The position numbers and the translations under genes are program-made. A stretch of 64,000 nucleotides of DNA from Dehalococcoidia bacterium. GTDB taxonomy: Bacteria; Chloroflexota; Dehalococcoidia; GIF9; AB-539-J10. Below the pieces are notes generated by a model that was given only the letters and a program-made list of their open reading frames with translations, was not told the origin of the DNA and ran no database searches. How positions within the stretch are numbered: the first letter of the stretch is position 1; the number at the start of each line of letters is the position of its first letter. Shown piece after piece: positions 2,791-52,540 of the stretch. The stretch is from assembly GCA_003562475.1 (NCBI GenBank), contig PWUU01000096.1:25853-89852 (forward strand), written 5' to 3'.

Positions 2791-2953
2791 GCCAGGCGAT
2801 TGCACCTGCCATATTGACACGCTGGCTTGCCGGCTGAGGACAACGGGACGGAAGGCTGCCATCGCCGGGGCGATCATTTCCAATCTGATCGCCTACTGCT
2901 CTGGTACTATTAGCTTCATGGAGTAACATATTGCCCGATGCGGGCAAGGAGAC

Positions 2954-3892
2954 ATGGAGATGCGCTACGGTTCAGGTGAGTTTCGGTACGAGTTGGTTCC
3001 ACGCTGGGCGCAGGTCACGGAAGGTTGGTCGTTCGTGGACATAGGTGGCATCGCGGTGGATGGTGACGACAATGTATACGTTCTCAGCCGAAGTGATTAC
3101 CCCGTCCTCGTGTTCAACAGAAACGGCGAGATGCTGCGACACTGGGGCGAAGGATTCTTCGGCCGCGCCCATGGAGCACGCCTTGCTCCTGACGGCTCCA
3201 TCTTCTGCACTGATGACGGTGATCACTTTGTCGCCAGGTTCAGCCCGAGCGGGGAGTTGCTGATGACTCTGGGAGCGAAAGGAGTTCCCTCAGACACCGG
3301 CTATCGCCGGACCTGGGATGTATTTCAGAGTACTTCAACCATCGCTTATGCTGGCCCGCCGTTCAACCGCCCCACCGGCACGGCGATCACTTTGGACGGT
3401 GACATCTTTGTCTCGGACGGATACGGGAACTGTCGAATTCACTGCTTCGACGCGTCGGGCACACTGCAGTATTCCTGGGGCGCTCCGGGTGGGAAACCAG
3501 AACATTTCCGTTTACCGCACGACATCGCGCTCGACAAGATGGGGCGGCTCCTTGTAGCCGACCGCGAGAACAGTCGCATCCAGCTCTTCGACCAATCGGG
3601 GACGCTGCTCGGCATCTGGCACGACGTCATTCGTCCGACGGGCATCGGTATCGACGCCGACGGGTTCATCTATGTCTCCGAGCTATGCCTCCGTGTGAGC
3701 GTGTTCAACAGCGATGGTGAGCTATTGGCGCGTTGGGGCAACACAACCAGCAACAGAGACGAGGCTCTCTTCCTCGCACCTCACACCGTCGCAGTGGATT
3801 CGCACGGTGATGTCTACGTGGGCGAGGTGTCGAAGACACACGCGGGAACCGACAGGGGCGCGGATACCATCCACAAGTTCTGCCGCCTGTGA
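2954..3892 (+). CDS. NHL-repeat six-bladed beta-propeller protein
   Basis: Repeated GIAVDGDDNVYV / DIALDKMGRLLVADRENSRIQLF / GIGIDADGFIYVSE / AVDSHGDVYVGE blades. AAGGAG lies upstream of the ATG. Confidence 0.7.
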   Translation: MEMRYGSGEFRYELVPRWAQVTEGWSFVDIGGIAVDGDDNVYVLSRSDYPVLVFNRNGEMLRHWGEGFFGRAHGARLAPDGSIFCTDDGDHFVARFSPSGELLMTLGAKGVPSDTGYRRTWDVFQSTSTIAYAGPPFNRPTGTAITLDGDIFVSDGYGNCRIHCFDASGTLQYSWGAPGGKPEHFRLPHDIALDKMGRLLVADRENSRIQLFDQSGTLLGIWHDVIRPTGIGIDADGFIYVSELCLRVSVFNSDGELLARWGNTTSNRDEALFLAPHTVAVDSHGDVYVGEVSKTHAGTDRGADTIHKFCRL

Positions 3893-3966
3893 GAATCAGG
3901 CGGCAGAAGCCGGGCGAGGCACGCCGCAGAAGCGGGATCAAAGAGACCTGCCGGGGCCACCGTCAA

Positions 3967-4308
3967 TCACTCACCAACAGCTTTCGGGACTTGATCCTCG
4001 CTGAACCGCTCGAGCTTGAAGAACACAGGGCGCAAGCCATCGGTACAGCACTGCACTGCAGTACCTTCTTCTTCGCAAAACGGGTAGTTGCCGCCAAACC
4101 GGAGATGGGTGATATCCCGCTGGATGTCGGCGAAGGCCCAGGAGCAGAAACCCTCGGGACAGGAACCATCCTCCGGCACAATGTACACATCGCCGACGTT
4201 GCAGCGAGGACACGACTCCTCAAACGTAGGGTGTACCGGAGGGGTATCACCAAACAGGTCACGGGTACCCAGTTTCCTGATAACGGTAATCTTCACTTTG
4301 CTTCGCAT
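3967..4308 (-). CDS. TIGR04076-like small Cys-rich protein
   Basis: 113 aa with CPRC..G..CPEGFCSWAF..I..GG..PF..CCTDG. This is the pattern I recognise from the TIGR04076 family. GAGGAGG lies upstream of the ATG. Confidence 0.55.
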   Translation of the reverse strand: MRSKVKITVIRKLGTRDLFGDTPPVHPTFEESCPRCNVGDVYIVPEDGSCPEGFCSWAFADIQRDITHLRFGGNYPFCEEEGTAVQCCTDGLRPVFFKLERFSEDQVPKAVGE

Positions 4309-4502: not shown

Positions 4503-6002
4503 CTAATCGCAGGTGCGTGCCACACCGCGCACTCGTTGTACCGCGTCGCGCCATTCCGCAGAGAGTCGCAGCCTGCGCGACTGCTCCATCGCGGGCAAGA
4601 ATACGCGGTCGATCGCCTGCGTTCCTTCGAGTTGTTTGACATCTGGCCACAGGCCGCTTCCGACTCCCGCGAGGTAGGCGGCACCGCGCGCCGTCGTCTC
4701 CACATCTGTCGGTCTAACAACCTTTACGCCGAGAACATCGGCCTGGAACTGGCACAGGAAGTCGTTCGTACTTGCCCCACCATCTACCTTGAGTTCCTCC
4801 ATGGAGAGTCCGGTATCTTCAAGCATGACGTCTACGACATCCTTCGTCCTGTAGCACATCGCCTCGAGGGCTGCCCGAACAATGTGTTCTCTTGTGGCTC
4901 CCCTGGTGATACCAACAATGGCTCCCCGTGCCTCGGCATCCCAATACGGTGCGCCCAGCCCGGCGAGCGCGGGCACAAAGTACACTCCTCCGTTGTCCGG
5001 AACCGACTCAGCGAGTTCCTGGGATAGCTTCGTTGACTCGAGCACACCCAGGCCGTCGCGAAGCCACTGAAGTACCGCCCCGGCAGTGAATATGGCGCCT
5101 TCCAGCGCATAGACAGGGGCACCCGAGACGCCGCAACCGAGCGTTGTGATAAGACGATCATCACCTGACGGCCGCTGTCCGCCGGCGTTCATCAAGATGA
5201 ACGCGCCTGTGCCATACGTGTTCTTGGCAGTGCCCGGCGACCAGCAGGTCTGTCCGAACAGCGCTGCCTGCTGGTCGCCGGCCACACCTGTGATCGGTAC
5301 ACCTGCCGGCAGTCCGCACTCTCCCGCTGTCACACCAAAGCCGCCTGACGACCCTTGCACATCCGGCAGCACCGACAACGGAATGTCGAACAGGGACAAC
5401 AACTCCTCGCTCCACACAAGCCGGTCGATATCGAACAGCATCGTGCGCGCCGCATTGGTGTAATCGGTGGCATGTACCGCTCCTCCGGTCAGCTTCCATA
5501 GCAACCACGAGTCTATCGTGCCGACCCTGAGACGGCGCCGGCGGGCACAGTCGCGCACCTCGGGCACGTTCGTCAGTAGCCATTCAACCTTAGTCGCAGA
5601 GAAGTAGGCATCGATGGGAAGCCCCGTCACTCGCCTGACAGTCCTTCGCACACCCTCGTCCTTATTCAGTATGGAGCATCTTTCTGCCGAGCGTCTGCAT
5701 TGCCACACAATCGCGTTGTGCAGCGGCTCGTCACTGGCAGCATCCCAGGCAACAGTCGTTTCCCGCTGATTGGTGATGCCAACGCAGGTGACACAGACCG
5801 ACGGGACCTGAGACAAGGCTTCTTTGATGCAGCCAACCACACTGTCCCAGATTTGCAACGGGTCATGCTCAACCCAGCCCGGCCTGGGAAAGCGCTGGGG
5901 GAACTCTCTGTAGGCCGATGCCACCGGGACGGCTTCCTCACTGTAGAGTATCGCACGGCTTCCCGTGGTACCCTGGTCAATCACGAGGACACATTCAATC
6001 AT
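4503..6002 (-). CDS. glpK: Glycerol kinase
   Basis: Full-length FGGY kinase: VIDQGTTGSRAILY, GITNQRETTVAWD, AGDQQAALFGQ, KNTYGTG, VDGGAS. Confidence 0.95.
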   Translation of the reverse strand: MIECVLVIDQGTTGSRAILYSEEAVPVASAYREFPQRFPRPGWVEHDPLQIWDSVVGCIKEALSQVPSVCVTCVGITNQRETTVAWDAASDEPLHNAIVWQCRRSAERCSILNKDEGVRRTVRRVTGLPIDAYFSATKVEWLLTNVPEVRDCARRRRLRVGTIDSWLLWKLTGGAVHATDYTNAARTMLFDIDRLVWSEELLSLFDIPLSVLPDVQGSSGGFGVTAGECGLPAGVPITGVAGDQQAALFGQTCWSPGTAKNTYGTGAFILMNAGGQRPSGDDRLITTLGCGVSGAPVYALEGAIFTAGAVLQWLRDGLGVLESTKLSQELAESVPDNGGVYFVPALAGLGAPYWDAEARGAIVGITRGATREHIVRAALEAMCYRTKDVVDVMLEDTGLSMEELKVDGGASTNDFLCQFQADVLGVKVVRPTDVETTARGAAYLAGVGSGLWPDVKQLEGTQAIDRVFLPAMEQSRRLRLSAEWRDAVQRVRGVARTCD

Positions 6003-47983: not shown

Positions 47984-49194
47984 GGCGTCGCGCCGCCACT
48001 GCCTCGCCGAATGGCACGGATCAACAGAGGCACCAGGGCAACAGTCGCCAGCACGCTGAGCACAGCGCAGACATAGAATACGGCGCTTATCCCCTCCGCA
48101 TCCGCCACCAGTCCCAACGCACCTGCGGAGAACGACCCCACCCCAAACGCGCAAAAGAAGTACACGCCGTACATGCGCCCCCGCCAGTAGTCCGGACAGT
48201 AGTCGGCAATGAGAGCATTGAACACCGGCTGGCTGAGAAAGTGAAAGAAGGCGAACGCGGCCGCCGCTCCGAGCAAGCCCACACCTCCGAATCCCCACAC
48301 CCCCAGCAATGCAGGTGCGGATACCCCCAGCGAGATGAGCGCCAGCGTCTCCCGCCGCCGCTTATCCGAGAGGTAGCCGCCCATGAACTGCCCGGCCACA
48401 CCGAACAACAGCGCCACCGTGGTAAAGGAGCCGCCAAGCATGACGGGATCGAGGCCCATGACGTCGTGCCTGACGCTCGCGCTGAGATGTGCCGGCAGAA
48501 ACGTCACCACGCCGCGGTAGACCAGGCCGTTGATGACACTGGCTACGAGAATCAACGCGAGCGGAAAAAGAACCGGGCGCAGCGATGCCGTCCCGGTATC
48601 GACCTGTACCGCAGCCGGGGCCTCCGGGGCAACGGCGCGGACCTTGCGCGGCAGCCTGAGGATGAGCAGGCCGAGAACTATGCACGGGATCGCGAAAACG
48701 GCGTACGCGAGCCGCCAGCCCATACCGGAGGCGATGATACCGACCATGATGGGACCCAGGGCGAGTCCCAGGTTGCCCCCGGTTCCCAGGTAGGCAAACC
48801 CCAGTCCGGTGCGACTCGCCGTACGGGCAATGAATGCCGCCGCCACCGGATGGAACAGGCCGAGGGCAACCCCGAGGAGCGCGAGAGCCACGCCAAGTGT
48901 CACAATATCAGGCGCGAGGCTCACCCCTGCTGCGCCAACGCCCATGCCGAGAGCACACAACGCCAGCAATCGCGTCTCGCTCACCCGGTCGGCCAGCACA
49001 CCGACCGGCAGCGCCGTCAATCCATAGGCGAAGCCAAAGACGTTGGCGATGACACCGAGCACGAAGAGGCTGACGCCGAGATCGGCGGCGATCGCAATGA
49101 GCGCCACTCCATAGGCCAGCTCAAGGACATGCAGCAGCCCGTGCAGAATTGACACATAGCCGATGCTCCGGCCCTCGAGGGAAACCTCTGCCAT
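47980..49194 (-). CDS. MFS transporter
   Basis: About 12 hydrophobic helices and the MFS loop motif GVLADRVSETR. The start is set at ATG 49194; the longest ORF starts at 49269. Confidence 0.8.
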   Translation of the reverse strand: MAEVSLEGRSIGYVSILHGLLHVLELAYGVALIAIAADLGVSLFVLGVIANVFGFAYGLTALPVGVLADRVSETRLLALCALGMGVGAAGVSLAPDIVTLGVALALLGVALGLFHPVAAAFIARTASRTGLGFAYLGTGGNLGLALGPIMVGIIASGMGWRLAYAVFAIPCIVLGLLILRLPRKVRAVAPEAPAAVQVDTGTASLRPVLFPLALILVASVINGLVYRGVVTFLPAHLSASVRHDVMGLDPVMLGGSFTTVALLFGVAGQFMGGYLSDKRRRETLALISLGVSAPALLGVWGFGGVGLLGAAAAFAFFHFLSQPVFNALIADYCPDYWRGRMYGVYFFCAFGVGSFSAGALGLVADAEGISAVFYVCAVLSVLATVALVPLLIRAIRRGSGGATP

Positions 49195-49380
49195 AGCGCG
49201 CGCCCCGCTCGAAACGGACAGGAAACCACTACTGTCGCGCGTACCTGGTCCGTACGAACCGAGAATCACCGCAGTCTATCACAGGAAACTCGTCCCAGGG
49301 TAGCTCGCCGGGCCGCTACGTTCAGGCCACACCTCTCCCTCCTGTACACCGCATCTGGACTGTTATGTCAAGGACACAGC

Positions 49381-50450
49381 GTCGTGCCCGCACTCGCGCC
49401 CGCCCGTACGTCATTCACGGCAACAGCATCCACACACCGCGCCGTTGACAGGACGATGGCATTATACGTAGGGGCGGCATACATGCCGCCCGCCCGTACT
49501 TCATTCACGGCAACAGCATCCACACACCCGGCCCCCGACCGGACGGTGGCGGGCCGGATATATCCGGCCCCTGCATATATGGGTGTGCCGGCGTTGGCGA
49601 TGGGGGTGGGGGGTGTCCCCAAATTGCCCGAATTACCCCAGGCCCCGCAGGGTGTAACTGTTCCCACACCGACCCGCAACGCCGATACGCGGCGTCGCCC
49701 ATGGGGCACATCCCCGATTATACGTAGGGGCGGCATGCATGCCGCCCCCCCCCCGTACGTCATTCAGGGCAACAGCATCCACAAACCGCGCCGTTGACCG
49801 GACGGTGGCGGGCCGGATATATCCGGCCCCTACATATAATGGGTGTTTCGGCGTTGGCGATGGGGGTGGGGGGTGTCCCCAAATTGCCCGAATTACCCCA
49901 GGCCCCGCAGGGTGTAACTGTTCCCACACCGACCCGCAGCGCCGATACGCGGCGTTGCCCGTGGGACACATCCGCCGATTATATGTAGGGGCGGCATACC
50001 TGCCGCCCGCCCGTACGTCACTCACGGCAACAGCATCCACAAACCGGGCCGTTGACAGGACGATGGCGGGCGGGTGTGGGAACCCGCCCCTACATGTACG
50101 TATGGTCACACCAACGTGTCCCACACCATCAACGCGGGTTTTCCCACGGGACGGTGGCGGGCCGGATATATCCGGCCCCTGCATATAATCGGTGTGCCGG
50201 CGTTGGCGATGGCGGCGGGGTGGGGCCCCAAAGCCATCATATCCCTGTAGGGGCCGGTTCCCACACCGACCCGCAACGCCGATACGCGGCGTCGCCCATG
50301 GGACACATCCCCCATTATATGTAGGGGCGGCATACATGCCGCCCGCAGCCGTACAGCCCATATCACCACCGAATTCCATTGTAGGGGTCGGTTCCCACAC
50401 CGACCCGGGTGTCGGGGCCGTGTGGTGTCGCCAAATTGCCCGAGCGAACG
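49381..50450. repeat. REP/BIME-like array, left block (GTAG-headed palindromic units, families A-D)
   Basis: Family A, + strand: GTAGGGGCGGCATACATGCCGCCC at 49468, 49724, 49985 and 50321. Family B, reverse orientation: palindromes GGGCCGGATATATCCGGCCC at 49551-49570, 49810-49829 and 50159-50178. Family C, + strand: GTAGGGG(T/C)CGGTTCCCACACCGACCC at 50247 and 50381, plus headless copies near 49660 and 49920. Family D, reverse orientation: 50068-50093. Confidence 0.85.
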
Positions 50451-50684
50451 CTACGCGTAGACCCTGAATGAGCCCCGCAGGGCATCACCGATCTCGCGCG
50501 CCTGTGGCACGTCGGTGAGATCCACGCCTTCGCTCACCCGCAGCCATTCGATGCCAACGGGGCCGTCATCCGCAGCGTAGTCAACGTTGCGAAAATCTCC
50601 AAGGGCCCTGGTGTAGGCGCACGGAGCCTCACGCAGGGTCACGTACAGTGCATCTGCTTCGCGGTCATAGTCAACTCTGAGCAT
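50451..50684 (-). CDS. DUF2283 domain protein (putative antitoxin)
   Basis: MLRVDYDREADALYVTL.. is the characteristic DUF2283 N-terminus. The ATG at 50684 follows GAGGTG, which overlaps the upstream stop. The ORF track starts at GTG 50693. Confidence 0.75.
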   Translation of the reverse strand: MLRVDYDREADALYVTLREAPCAYTRALGDFRNVDYAADDGPVGIEWLRVSEGVDLTDVPQAREIGDALRGSFRVYA

Positions 50685-50694
50685 CTGTGACACC

Positions 50695-50904
50695 TCACAG
50701 CCACATTGCGGATACTACCATGTTCTTGTCCGCATCAATAACCACTTTCAGGCGCCTTCCGTCGGGCAGGTTAAGAATATGCTGCTTGAGCCCTTTCGTC
50801 GGTGAGAGCACCACATCCGGCTTCTCAAGGCACATCTCAACCCACTCTTTCTCAATGCCACGCTGCCTCATCCGATCCCAGGCGTGCTTTGAGTATCGTG
50901 GCAT
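50695..50904 (-). CDS. DUF4258 domain protein (putative toxin)
   Basis: 69 aa: SKHAWDRMRQRGIEKEWVEMCLEKPD...VVIDADKNMVVSAMW. It is tightly coupled to the DUF2283 gene. Confidence 0.7.
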   Translation of the reverse strand: MPRYSKHAWDRMRQRGIEKEWVEMCLEKPDVVLSPTKGLKQHILNLPDGRRLKVVIDADKNMVVSAMWL

Positions 50905-50968
50905 ATATCACTAGCCCCTGTGGCCGGCCTGTAGTCTGACGCCTTGTGGCGTGCCTGTCAAGCAGGTG

Positions 50969-51556
50969 CGCCCAATTCAGGGGACACCATCCCCCGCATA
51001 CCATTGTAGGGGTCGGTTCCCACACCGACCTGCAACGCCGATACGCGGCGTCGCCCGTGGGACAGATCCACCATTATGTGTAGGGGCGGCATACATGCCG
51101 CCCGCCCGTACGTCATTCACGGCAACGGCATCCACACACGGGGCCCCCGACCGGACGGCGACGGGCCGGATATATCCGGCCCCTACATATAATGGTGTGC
51201 CGGCGTCGGCGATGGCGGCGGCGTGGGGCCCCAAAGCCATCATATCCCTGTAGGGGTCGGTTCCCACACCGACCCGCAACGCCGATACGCGGCGTCGCCC
51301 GTGGGACAGATCCACCATTATGTGTAGGGGCGGCATACATGCCGCCCGCCCGTACGTCATTCACGGCAACAGCATCCACAAACCGGGCCGTTGACAGGAC
51401 GATGGCGGGCGGGTGTGGGAACCCGCCCCTACATGTACGTGTGGTCACACCAACGTGTTCGACACCATCAACGCGGGTCTTCCCACGGGACGGTGGCGGG
51501 CCGGATATATCCGGCCCCTGCATATAATGGTGTGGGTGGTGTCCCCGAAGTACGCG
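50969..51556. repeat. REP/BIME-like array, right block
   Basis: Family C at 51006 and 51250. Family A at 51080 and 51324. Family B palindromes at 51163-51182 and 51498-51517. Family D at 51407-51432. Long stretches are near-identical to the left block. Confidence 0.85.
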
Positions 51557-51592
51557 TATGCGGCAGCACTCGAATACCATGAGAGAGCGAAG

Positions 51593-52540
51593 TCAGCCAG
51601 CAGCGGACAGGTTCAGTGCTCTGAAATACTCGATGGTTCGTCGAAGGCCCTCGTCCAGCGGCACAGTTGGGGCAAAGTTCAACTCCCGTCGCGCCAGGCT
51701 GATGTCAGGCCGTCGTCTCCTGGGATCGTCATCCGGAAGCTCCTGCAGCCGGATGAGGGAAGCGCTGTCCGTCAGGCGGATTATCTTCTCAGCCAGCTCG
51801 CGTATCGTCGATTCCTCGGGGTTTCCGATATTGACCGGGCCGACGAATTCCGCCGGGCTCTCCATGAAGCGGATCATGCCGTCGATCAGATCATCCACGT
51901 AGCAGAAGCTCCTCGTCTGCAGCCCATCCCCGTAGATCGTAATGGGCTCTCCTCTCAGCGCTTGAACAATGAAGCTGCTTATGACGCGGCCGTCGTCCGG
52001 CTGCATCCGTGGACCGTAGGCGTTGAAGATTCGCATCACCTTGATCGGAACCCGGTACTGCCTCCAGTAGTCGAAAAACAGAGTATCGGCGCAGCGCTTG
52101 CCTTCATCGTAACAGCCCCGCATCCCTATCGGGTTCACCCGTCCCCAGTAGCCTTCATGCTGGGGGTGCACCTCCGGATCGCCATACACCTCGGCCGTAG
52201 AAGCCTGGAGGATCCTGATCTTTGCTCTTCTGGCCAGCTCAAGCGCATTCACCGCCCCGTACACGCACGTCTTCAGCGTCTGCACCGGATCGCGCCGGTA
52301 ATGGACGGGTGATGCCGGGCAGGCAAGATTGTAGATCCGGTCGACCTCAACGAAGATCGGCAGCGTCATGTCATGACGAATAGCCTCGAAGTTGGCGTGG
52401 GGAATCAGGTGGGCGATATTCCGCTCGCTGCCGGTGGAGTAGTTGTCCACGCAGGTGACGTGGTGACCCGCAGCCAGTAGTCGTTCACAGAGATGAGAGC
52501 CGAGAAAGCCGGCTCCGCCGGTCACCAGGATCCTTTGCAT
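51593..52540 (-). CDS. UDP-glucuronate decarboxylase (UDP-xylose synthase)-type SDR
   Basis: [26 protein letters not shown], the YDEGKR catalytic motif and the typical UXS/ArnA-C length of 315 aa. Confidence 0.88.

Follow-up and report, generated by a model that had tools for sequence, protein, structure and literature searches.

A probable cluster of GTAG-tagged repetitive extragenic palindromes with a BIME-like build, grown by module duplication, in a Dehalococcoidia-like Chloroflexota genome

Short palindromes with an unpaired GTAG at one foot, the GTAG-tagged repetitive extragenic palindromes (REPs), were described by Di Nocera and others in Proteobacteria, Cyanobacteria, Chloroflexi and the Planctomycetes-Verrucomicrobia-Chlamydiae (PVC) group (Di Nocera et al., 2013; PMC3733652). 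Typically there are sub-families set apart by complementary residues in the stem, the clusters consist of dimers tandemly reiterated along with flanking DNA, and REPs lying downstream of genes have been proposed as RNA elements (PMC3733652). In Chloroflexi, the family GTAG-23 was found in Thermomicrobium roseum and Roseiflexus castenholzii, mostly as clustered elements, and the T. roseum units are inserted within CCGSSCC(n3,4)GGSSCGG palindromes (PMC3733652). Among RAYTs (REP-associated tyrosine transposases), those of Group 4 are common in Cyanobacteria, Chlorobia and Caldilineae (Bertels et al., 2017; PMC5581495), and subclass 2.4/Group 4 has been reported in Cyanobacteria, Bacteroidetes, Chlorobia, Caldilineae and “various phyla” (PMC6006769, PMC5581495). 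Quentin and others gave the signature of subclass 2.4 as NH[IFV]H, WQ and YIxNNP, with REPs inserted in the gene, while the recognition of GTAG plus hairpin on single-stranded DNA (ssDNA), cutting and rejoining were demonstrated for the E. coli enzyme only (Quentin et al., 2018; PMC6006769). Here, a hairpin-rich block of 2.2 kb (49381-51556) is described in a 64-kb stretch of DNA, hereafter the window, from a Dehalococcoidia-like Chloroflexota genome. The block likely represents clustered members of the GTAG-tagged REP superfamily with the build of bacterial interspersed mosaic elements (BIMEs), its units having probably been made and seeded by a RAYT and the array having grown by module duplication.

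A search allowing up to three mismatches revealed in the block 19 palindromic units of the GTAG/GCAG type and five headless hairpins. The units fall into four stem families, whose counts agree exactly with those of the first-pass annotation. Unit A (GTAGGGGCGGCATACATGCCGCCC) is present in six copies, on the plus strand only, and unit B (GTAGGGGCCGGATATATCCGGCCC) in five, on the minus strand only, three of which carry a GCAG head (49551, 50159 and 51498). Unit C (GTAGGGG[T/C]CGGTTCCCACACCGACCC) has four full copies on the plus strand plus two headless cores (49660 and 49920), and unit D (GTAGGGGCGGGTTCCCACACCCGCCC) has two copies on the minus strand. The head is GTAG in 14 of the 17 headed units and GCAG in the other three. 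The second, headless hairpin H2 (ACGCCGATACGCGGCGT; n = 5) had been described as following every C unit; it lies after five of the six and is missing after C2 at 50381. The placement of the block between a major facilitator superfamily (MFS) gene and a UXS gene was likewise correct, but its purely intergenic status was not, as genes for DUF2283 and DUF4258 proteins lie inside it. Within the window, the heptamer GTAGGGG occurs 16 times against an expectation of 4.8 +/- 2.0, with 14 occurrences inside the block, which also holds 15 of the 25 perfect hairpins with a stem of at least 8 bp. No further window hairpin with a stem of 7 bp or more bears a GTAG head at the foot.

Folded individually as ssDNA, a check that the first-pass annotation had proposed, the units form stable hairpins with an 8-bp stem, a loop of 4-6 nt and four unpaired head bases, at energies of -8.7 to -11 kcal/mol and z-scores of -3.2 to -4.8. 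The A and B stems extend to 9 bp with a 2-nt loop once the innermost A-T pair is included. An alignment of 23 units, taken from the window and from a contig of a relative (L100, B1Sed10_135), was used to examine covariation. Positions G1, A3, G4, G5 and G6 are invariant in this alignment, and in the six outer stem pairs 98.9% of the cells pair, compared with 32-61% in slid controls. Compensatory, two-sided changes are found in four of these six pairs, and the observed covariation was reached by none of 500 shuffles. A differs from B solely by compensatory stem changes and one loop base, and C from D solely by compensatory stem changes. Such changes around a fixed head indicate selection on shape, not simple copying. 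GTAG-tagged REPs are recognised by a stem of 6-13 bp with an unpaired terminal GTAG/GYAG and by sub-families with complementary stem changes; the stems of 8-9 bp in the block and the pairs A/B and C/D correspond to both. The REP/BIME architecture claimed at first reading is therefore borne out, with an unpaired GYAG head beside an 8-9-bp G+C-rich stem, compensatory stems and alternating units.

The units alternate in orientation, as had been recognised, have conserved linkers between them and are organised into five head-out inverted doublets, with GTAG outermost, in which A (plus) is followed by a 59-nt linker, S1, and then by B or D (minus). The identity from doublet to doublet is 83-98%, and doublets 3 and 5, which stand on opposite sides of the embedded gene pair, are 98.2% identical. 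Doublet 5 (A-S1-D) folds as one long hairpin resembling a REPIN, the REP doublet hairpin of Pseudomonas (-33.8 kcal/mol, z = -4.6), and doublet 4 (A-S1-B) folds as two separate hairpins. Inverted REP pairs with a conserved spacer, reiterated in clusters, are what distinguishes BIMEs and REPINs, and the five doublets are such pairs. Together with the linkers they build larger modules: A-S1-B-S2-C'-H2 of 259 bp in two copies, A-S1-B-S2'-C-H2 of 244 bp in one copy, and A-S1-D-S3-B-S2'-C-H2 of about 344 bp, with one copy to the left and one to the right of the gene pair, the right copy stopping at B5. The composite direct repeats are spaced by 244-260 bp, in keeping with the modules of about 250-260 bp noted earlier. 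A 212-nt direct repeat (49978-50189 versus 51317-51528) reaches across the gene pair at 97% identity, the second type-I S2 stretch is 96% identical over 135 nt to 49579-49713, and a further direct repeat in the block extends over 189 nt at 88%.

Since the linkers are duplicated with the units and each stem variant keeps one orientation, the array must have grown mainly by duplication of whole modules and not by separate insertions of 24-nt units. Whole-module duplication accounts for the copying of S1, S2, S3 and H2 together with the units, for the fixed orientation of each variant and for the near-identical modules that flank the gene pair to its left and right. The duplicated linkers and the fixed orientations also agree with a second explanation, in which a hairpin-rich segment that was never mobile was amplified locally, by slippage or unequal recombination and independently of any RAYT, all heads descending from a single ancestor unit. 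This explanation is regarded as unlikely, although it has a better claim than the other alternatives, and the compensatory stem changes around a fixed head already speak against it.

Further evidence against a purely local origin comes from arrays elsewhere. A spurious open reading frame (ORF) at 49633-50400 (minus strand) was searched against 1.84 billion representative proteins and gave two matches. One of them, P0257, is a copy of the window locus on a JGI contig of 1000 nt. The other, P0256, is a 302-aa ORF on a separate NCBI contig of 48,140 nt and represents a second array, in which the translated peptides encode A (GGMYAAPT), B (VGAGYIRP) and D (RGGFPHPP; GGCGNPPL in the opposite sense), together with S1-like (ARFVDAVAPND) and S3-like linkers, in a unit order that differs from that of the window. 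The first-pass annotation had named confinement of the units to this locus as a ground for abandoning its reading; because A, B and D are found in the P0256 array, they are not so confined. In the relative's contig L100, an array of 1.3 kb at an unrelated locus holds at least five stem variants of GTAG/GCAG-headed hairpins with repeated linkers, and it follows the same grammar as the window block with different stems. Neither array would be expected from local amplification of a segment that never moved.

The enzymes associated with such hairpins were sought with a profile of a RAYT class that was seeded from the Roseiflexus RAYT-like protein rca 2775 in the alignment of Di Nocera and others. 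The class carries the motifs MPNH[ILVFM]H[GA], LWQRNY[YHW]EHI[IV] and YIxxNP, with D in place of E in a Leptolinea protein, and at E <= 1e-10 its profile recovers no fewer than 7998 proteins, with sources labelled, among others, Chthonomonadales, Nitrospira, Binatia, Acetothermia, Methylococcus and Deltaproteobacteria. In all seven informative loci, GTAGGGGC hairpins lie inside a RAYT gene of this class or within about 700 bp of it, the nearest being within 200 bp. A JGI contig (L125) has an in-frame head-out doublet inside the RAYT gene (1017-1067), and ENA contigs (L126/L127) have one unit upstream (plus) and one downstream (minus), a classic REPtron. In a contig from the IMG/VR viral collection (L129) the hairpins are just downstream of the gene, and in Chthonomonadales (L149) they are internal to it. 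A Nitrospira locus (L154) combines hairpins upstream and at the start codon with an internal doublet (2786-2851), and a Binatia locus (L155) has four tandem internal units and one inverted unit (2814-3003). The seventh, on the plasmid of Leptolinea sp. HRD-7 (L147), belongs to Chloroflexota and has arrays on both sides of the RAYT gene, including three tandem hairpin-linker-hairpin modules of about 147 bp. The Leptolinea protein (BCY19579.1) scores 82.2 with the NCBIfam model REP_Tyr_transpos (cutoff 80) and is also matched by both hidden Markov models (HMMs) used here. In the RAYT genes of L125, L154 and L155, in-frame REP insertions occur right after the HUH motif and give peptides such as VGA..P and GQPQGVAPT. 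By motif signatures only (NH[IFV]H, WQ, YIxNNP), the class appears to correspond to subclass 2.4 of Quentin and others and to Group 4 of Bertels and others. One RAYT class is thereby linked, in genomes other than that of the window, to this type of head and also, for Chloroflexota, to the habit of forming arrays, and this association, which includes a Chloroflexota REPtron, would not be anticipated if the hairpins had been amplified without a RAYT.

The most likely course of events is therefore one in which a RAYT (HUH/Y1), probably of the MPNHxHG/WQRNYxEHI/YIxxNP class and encoded elsewhere in the genome, made and seeded the units. Judging by the families involved, such an enzyme would bind GTAG plus hairpin on ssDNA, cut it and rejoin it, and would in this way create and move doublets. 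The array then grew locally, whole modules of 244-344 bp being copied by segmental duplication or unequal recombination, as can be read from the repeats themselves, and the most recent expansion took place across the gene pair. At the level of function, the hairpins might act as stabilisers of RNA 3' ends or as insulators, and as recombination substrates at the island junction. The genes flanking the block are all on the minus strand, so transcripts of the UXS operon and of the small gene pair would carry the hairpins on their downstream side.

Several observations weigh against this course of events, and some of them are equally what local amplification predicts. No RAYT was detected in the window or in loci L001-L124 by two motif scans and by an HMM of 19 RAYT/TIRYT sequences, built from Additional file 5 of Di Nocera and others, and the HMM of the class (A1) detected none there either. 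The absence from the window, on which the first-pass annotation had been right, means that the cognate enzyme is deduced from other genomes. A RAYT is usually present in a single copy per genome, and its absence from 64 kb therefore says little. Dispersal is also low: there are 19 A-D unit places in the block, no A-D or H2 sequence (up to three mismatches) in the remaining 62 kb of the window, and one further array on the separate 48-kb contig, so that exact A, B and D units are known from two arrays only and spread far less than classic proteobacterial REPs. The exact S1 core gave 16 matches in the metagenome collection, all of them chance hits in unrelated sequence with no S1 context, and an nhmmer profile of S1 against the Leptolinea or L100 linkers gave E > 10. 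BLAST searches of one module and of unit A against plasmids returned no meaningful matches. Finally, as regards the conjectured RNA-level role, the hairpins have no T-tails and a scan showed no excess of terminator-like or promoter-like sites.

This last result also bears on a third explanation, according to which the block is a structured RNA, either an array of small RNA genes or a leader or trailer with terminator or attenuator hairpins for the MFS and UXS genes, and DNA mobility is irrelevant. The hairpins are stable, the minus-strand orientation of the neighbouring genes makes transcription of the block probable, and REPs at the 3' side of genes have been proposed as RNA elements (PMC3733652). 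Apart from the lack of T-tails and of promoter- or terminator-like signals, however, an E-value scan of 49000-52000 with Rfam gave a single chance-level match, to sR19 (17.5 bits against a gathering threshold of 45, E = 0.43), which lies outside the block. As perfect DNA palindromes the units read identically on either strand, they are present in both orientations, and the block is absent from the orthologous MFS loci of four relatives. A structured RNA is thus an improbable explanation.

An integron-like cassette array, with the hairpins as attC sites and DUF4258/DUF2283 as a toxin-antitoxin cassette, is scarcely credible: toxin-antitoxin pairs are common in the cassettes of chromosomal integrons and repeats do lie on both sides of the gene pair, but attC sites are imperfect palindromes of 55-140 nt bounding gene cassettes, while the units here are perfect palindromes of 24-26 nt, 60-100 nt apart with no ORFs between them and with a GYAG head in place of a GTTRRRY core, and no integrase or transposase family is present among 36 window ORFs scanned with Pfam, which include every called ORF of at least 60 aa between 37.7 and 64 kb. 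Both a structured RNA and an attC array had been named at the outset as findings that would overturn the REP reading, and neither was found. A CRISPR array is ruled out by the alternating orientation of the units and by the repetition of the would-be spacers S1, S2 and S3.

The first-pass annotation had regarded this architecture as unusual outside proteobacteria, and that judgement was not sustained, given that GTAG REPs are published for Chloroflexi (PMC3733652), that Group 4 RAYTs occur in Caldilineae (PMC5581495) and that A/B-type 24-mers occur in at least six phyla. The latter were found by scanning a genome collection with the pattern GTAGGGGCSGSATAYATSCSGCCC, which covers A and B and matched at least 120 stretches (L001-L120). 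Among the matches listed, the exact A/B-type 24-mer is present in metagenome-assembled genomes (MAGs) or isolates of at least eight lineages from at least six phyla, with the labels Nitrospinota, Gemmiger/Subdoligranulum/Faecousia, Thermoleophilia, Gemmatimonadota, Acidobacteriota, Anaerolineae, Dehalococcoidia and delta proteobacteria. Of the 154 matches listed, 153 are complementary at the four free S positions, all four possible complementary stems are represented, and about 0.1 matches would be expected by chance according to our own calculation. The cross-phylum matches are real hairpins; the head and the loop were fixed by the scan pattern, so the matches are uninformative on the conservation of the head or of the ATAYAT loop. 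The layout of the 24-mer is GTAGGGGC, three variable pairs, ATAYAT and GCCC. Among the matches listed it is particularly frequent in gut Oscillospiraceae (Gemmiger, Subdoligranulum, Faecousia) and in the MAGs of sponge-associated Nitrospinota, and in each lineage the hairpin is embedded in a longer lineage-specific repeat, such as TACGGGTACTCC-unit-GTTGCAGCC in Gemmiger. Additional GTAG-tagged hairpins whose stems differ are plentiful at the matched loci; in 48 kb of one Subdoligranulum MAG there are 45 tagged hairpins, of 19 kinds. At these loci it is the rule for one genome to carry several stem variants, and the co-existence of stem families in the block, which had also been considered unusual, is not. 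A protein recurring beside the hairpins was sought by all-against-all clustering of 3001 ORFs from the 120 loci, which gave nothing but generic families such as ABC transporters.

A wider proposal can be made only tentatively, and we hold it to be doubtful: GTAGGGGC-headed REPs and MPNHxHG/WQRNY RAYTs may form one cross-phylum system, broader than published, which in Chloroflexota takes the form of large multi-variant arrays, few in number, where the core genome meets variable islands. If so, the system would reach the Oscillospiraceae of the gut Firmicutes, Thermoleophilia, the Nitrospinota sponge symbionts, Gemmatimonadota, Acidobacteriota and Dehalococcoidia. In contrast to the proteobacterial REPINs, which disperse, its Chloroflexota arrays would lie on either side of small genes and might reshuffle them, examples being the toxin-antitoxin-like pair of the window and the SCO4226-like gene in L100. 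A broader census of Group 4 RAYT-REP systems could draw on the head and hairpin shared across phyla.

From left to right, the block opens with an orphan S1 copy on the plus strand (49397-49460) that has no A hairpin before it; with this copy as the reference for the direct repeat, the other five are 84-97% identical. A GGCAAC(N3-7)TCCACA-like motif is common by eye to S1 and to the Leptolinea linkers (L147, 4500-5000); it has no nhmmer support and homology is not claimed. Doublet 1 (49468-49574, plus) consists of A1 (49468-49491, plus), S1 and B1 (49551-49574, minus, GCAG head). It is followed on the plus strand by a type-I S2 linker with a headless C core (49660-49674), H2 (49679-49695) and an AT-rich junction before A2 (49575-49723 in all), by doublet 2 (49724-49833, plus) with A2 (49724-49747), S1 and B2 (49810-49833, minus), and by a second type-I S2 (49834-49984, plus) with a headless C core (49920-49934) and H2 (49939-49955). 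Doublet 3 (49985-50093, plus) contains A3 (49985-50008), S1 and D1 (50068-50093, minus). The S3 linker and B3 (50159-50182, minus, GCAG head) occupy 50094-50182 (minus) within the 212-nt direct repeat. Then come an S2' linker with C1 (50247-50272, one stem mismatch) and H2 (50276-50292) at 50183-50292 (plus), and A4 (50321-50344), a short spacer and C2 (50381-50406) at 50321-50406 (plus).

To the right of the gene pair, C3 (51006-51031, last base T) and its H2 (51035-51051) lie at 51006-51051 (plus). Doublet 4 (51080-51186, plus) has A5, S1 and B4 (51163-51186, minus); the next S2' linker (51187-51295, plus) contains C4 (51250-51275) and H2 (51279-51295); and doublet 5 (51324-51432, plus) has A6, S1 and D2 (51407-51432, minus). 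The right edge (51433-51556, minus) is formed by S3, B5 (51498-51521, minus, GCAG head) and a truncated S2-like tail, and ends 37 nt before the UXS stop codon.

The gene pair comprises an 80-aa DUF2283 gene (50451-50693, minus; Pfam PF10049, E = 1e-10), a putative antitoxin-like partner, and a 69-aa DUF4258 gene (50695-50904, minus; PF14076, E = 2.8e-10), a putative toxin-like partner. The two ORFs are one base apart and split the block into 49381-50450 and 50905-51556. Lying between directly repeated modules (97% over 212 nt), the pair has a geometry that would permit recombinational loss or movement. The type-I S2 stretches (49602-49663 and 49862-49923) align, with an 18-nt deletion, to 50414-50493 (CCAAATTGCCCGA...GCCCCGCAGGG), which is the DNA just downstream of the DUF2283 gene plus its last codons, and the two headless C units arise at this match; an earlier duplication thus probably spanned the boundary of the DUF2283 gene. 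In L100, arrays at 3584-4135 and 4665-4923 bracket one small SCO4226-like gene (PF14026, 4335-4610), in parallel with the arrays around the DUF4258/DUF2283 pair. The called proteins P0256, P0257 and P0258, the last on the window contig (126,024 nt), are made wholly of translated repeat array.

The neighbours on the left are core genes, namely LemA, an M48 peptidase, a 3-hydroxyisobutyrate-dehydrogenase-like gene, a pseudouridine synthase and the MFS gene, and their order (about 42.9-49.2 kb) is conserved on a 1.5-Mb contig of a relative (L124). The MFS gene probably starts at 49194, as its database copy (P0001) has 404 aa, so that 49195-49380 would be ordinary upstream DNA. On the right (51.6-64 kb) there is a polysaccharide cluster with the UXS-like epimerase, a GT2 glycosyltransferase, a UDP-glucose dehydrogenase, another epimerase and a multi-glycosyltransferase of 1162 aa. 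The MFS relatives are labelled Dehalococcoidia or Chloroflexota, one of them being 84% identical and coming from GCA_003552125.1 (Dehalococcoidia bacterium B1Sed10_135). The comparison of orthologous loci that had been proposed earlier was carried out with L121 (84%), L156 (82%), L122/L123 (77%) and L124 (73%): no tagged hairpins were found at the MFS loci of these four relatives, and different genes occupy the side of the polysaccharide cluster. The block is therefore lineage-specific and stands at a synteny break.

Compared with the E. coli BIMEs, which are mosaics of Y, Z1 and Z2, and with the Pseudomonas REPINs, the block has the same orientation-bound variants alternating with conserved linkers, the same inverted doublet as basic unit, arrays that vary by tandem amplification, and a GT[AG]G guide 5' of the hairpin foot (PMC6006769). 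It differs in that its sequence is unrelated except for the head, its linker is longer (59 nt) and its dispersal is far lower; only the A-S1-D doublets, and not A-S1-B, give one long hairpin. The RAYT class tied to the block is probably Group 4/subclass 2.4, whereas Groups 2 or 3 belong to the E. coli BIMEs and Pseudomonas REPINs. With the subclass 2.4/Group 4 REPtrons the block shares the GTAGGGGC head and stems of 8-9 bp, the loops being 3-6 nt at the RAYT loci and 2-6 nt in the window, and REPs inside the RAYT gene, as published for subclass 2.4, were found in L125, L149, L154 and L155. Unlike those REPtrons, the window locus is an orphan array that has no RAYT gene.

GTAG-23 is similar to the block in its Chloroflexota hosts, its GTAG-tagged short palindromes and its clustered form. 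Its hosts differ in class from the Dehalococcoidia-like host, and the likeness, a close one, is to the published description of the family and not to stem or loop sequences; no block-type units were found in the T. roseum megaplasmid over its first 50 kb. The intragenic GTAG-23 copies of R. castenholzii encode peptides ending in ...PY, an ending that would fit a CCCTAC tail, with GTAGGG or more on the opposite strand. Clustered GTAG REPs are therefore already published for Chloroflexota, and the block, which does not overturn current understanding, is a good example of them rather than a new kind of element. It adds a well-resolved REP/BIME architecture for an uncultured Dehalococcoidia-like Chloroflexota lineage, it illustrates how an array grows, with modules duplicated across an embedded gene pair at the boundary between conserved genes and a polysaccharide island, and it is a reminder for annotation that such arrays yield spurious ORFs and break assemblies. 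Together with the comparison loci, it connects a single widespread RAYT class with the GTAGGGGC head.

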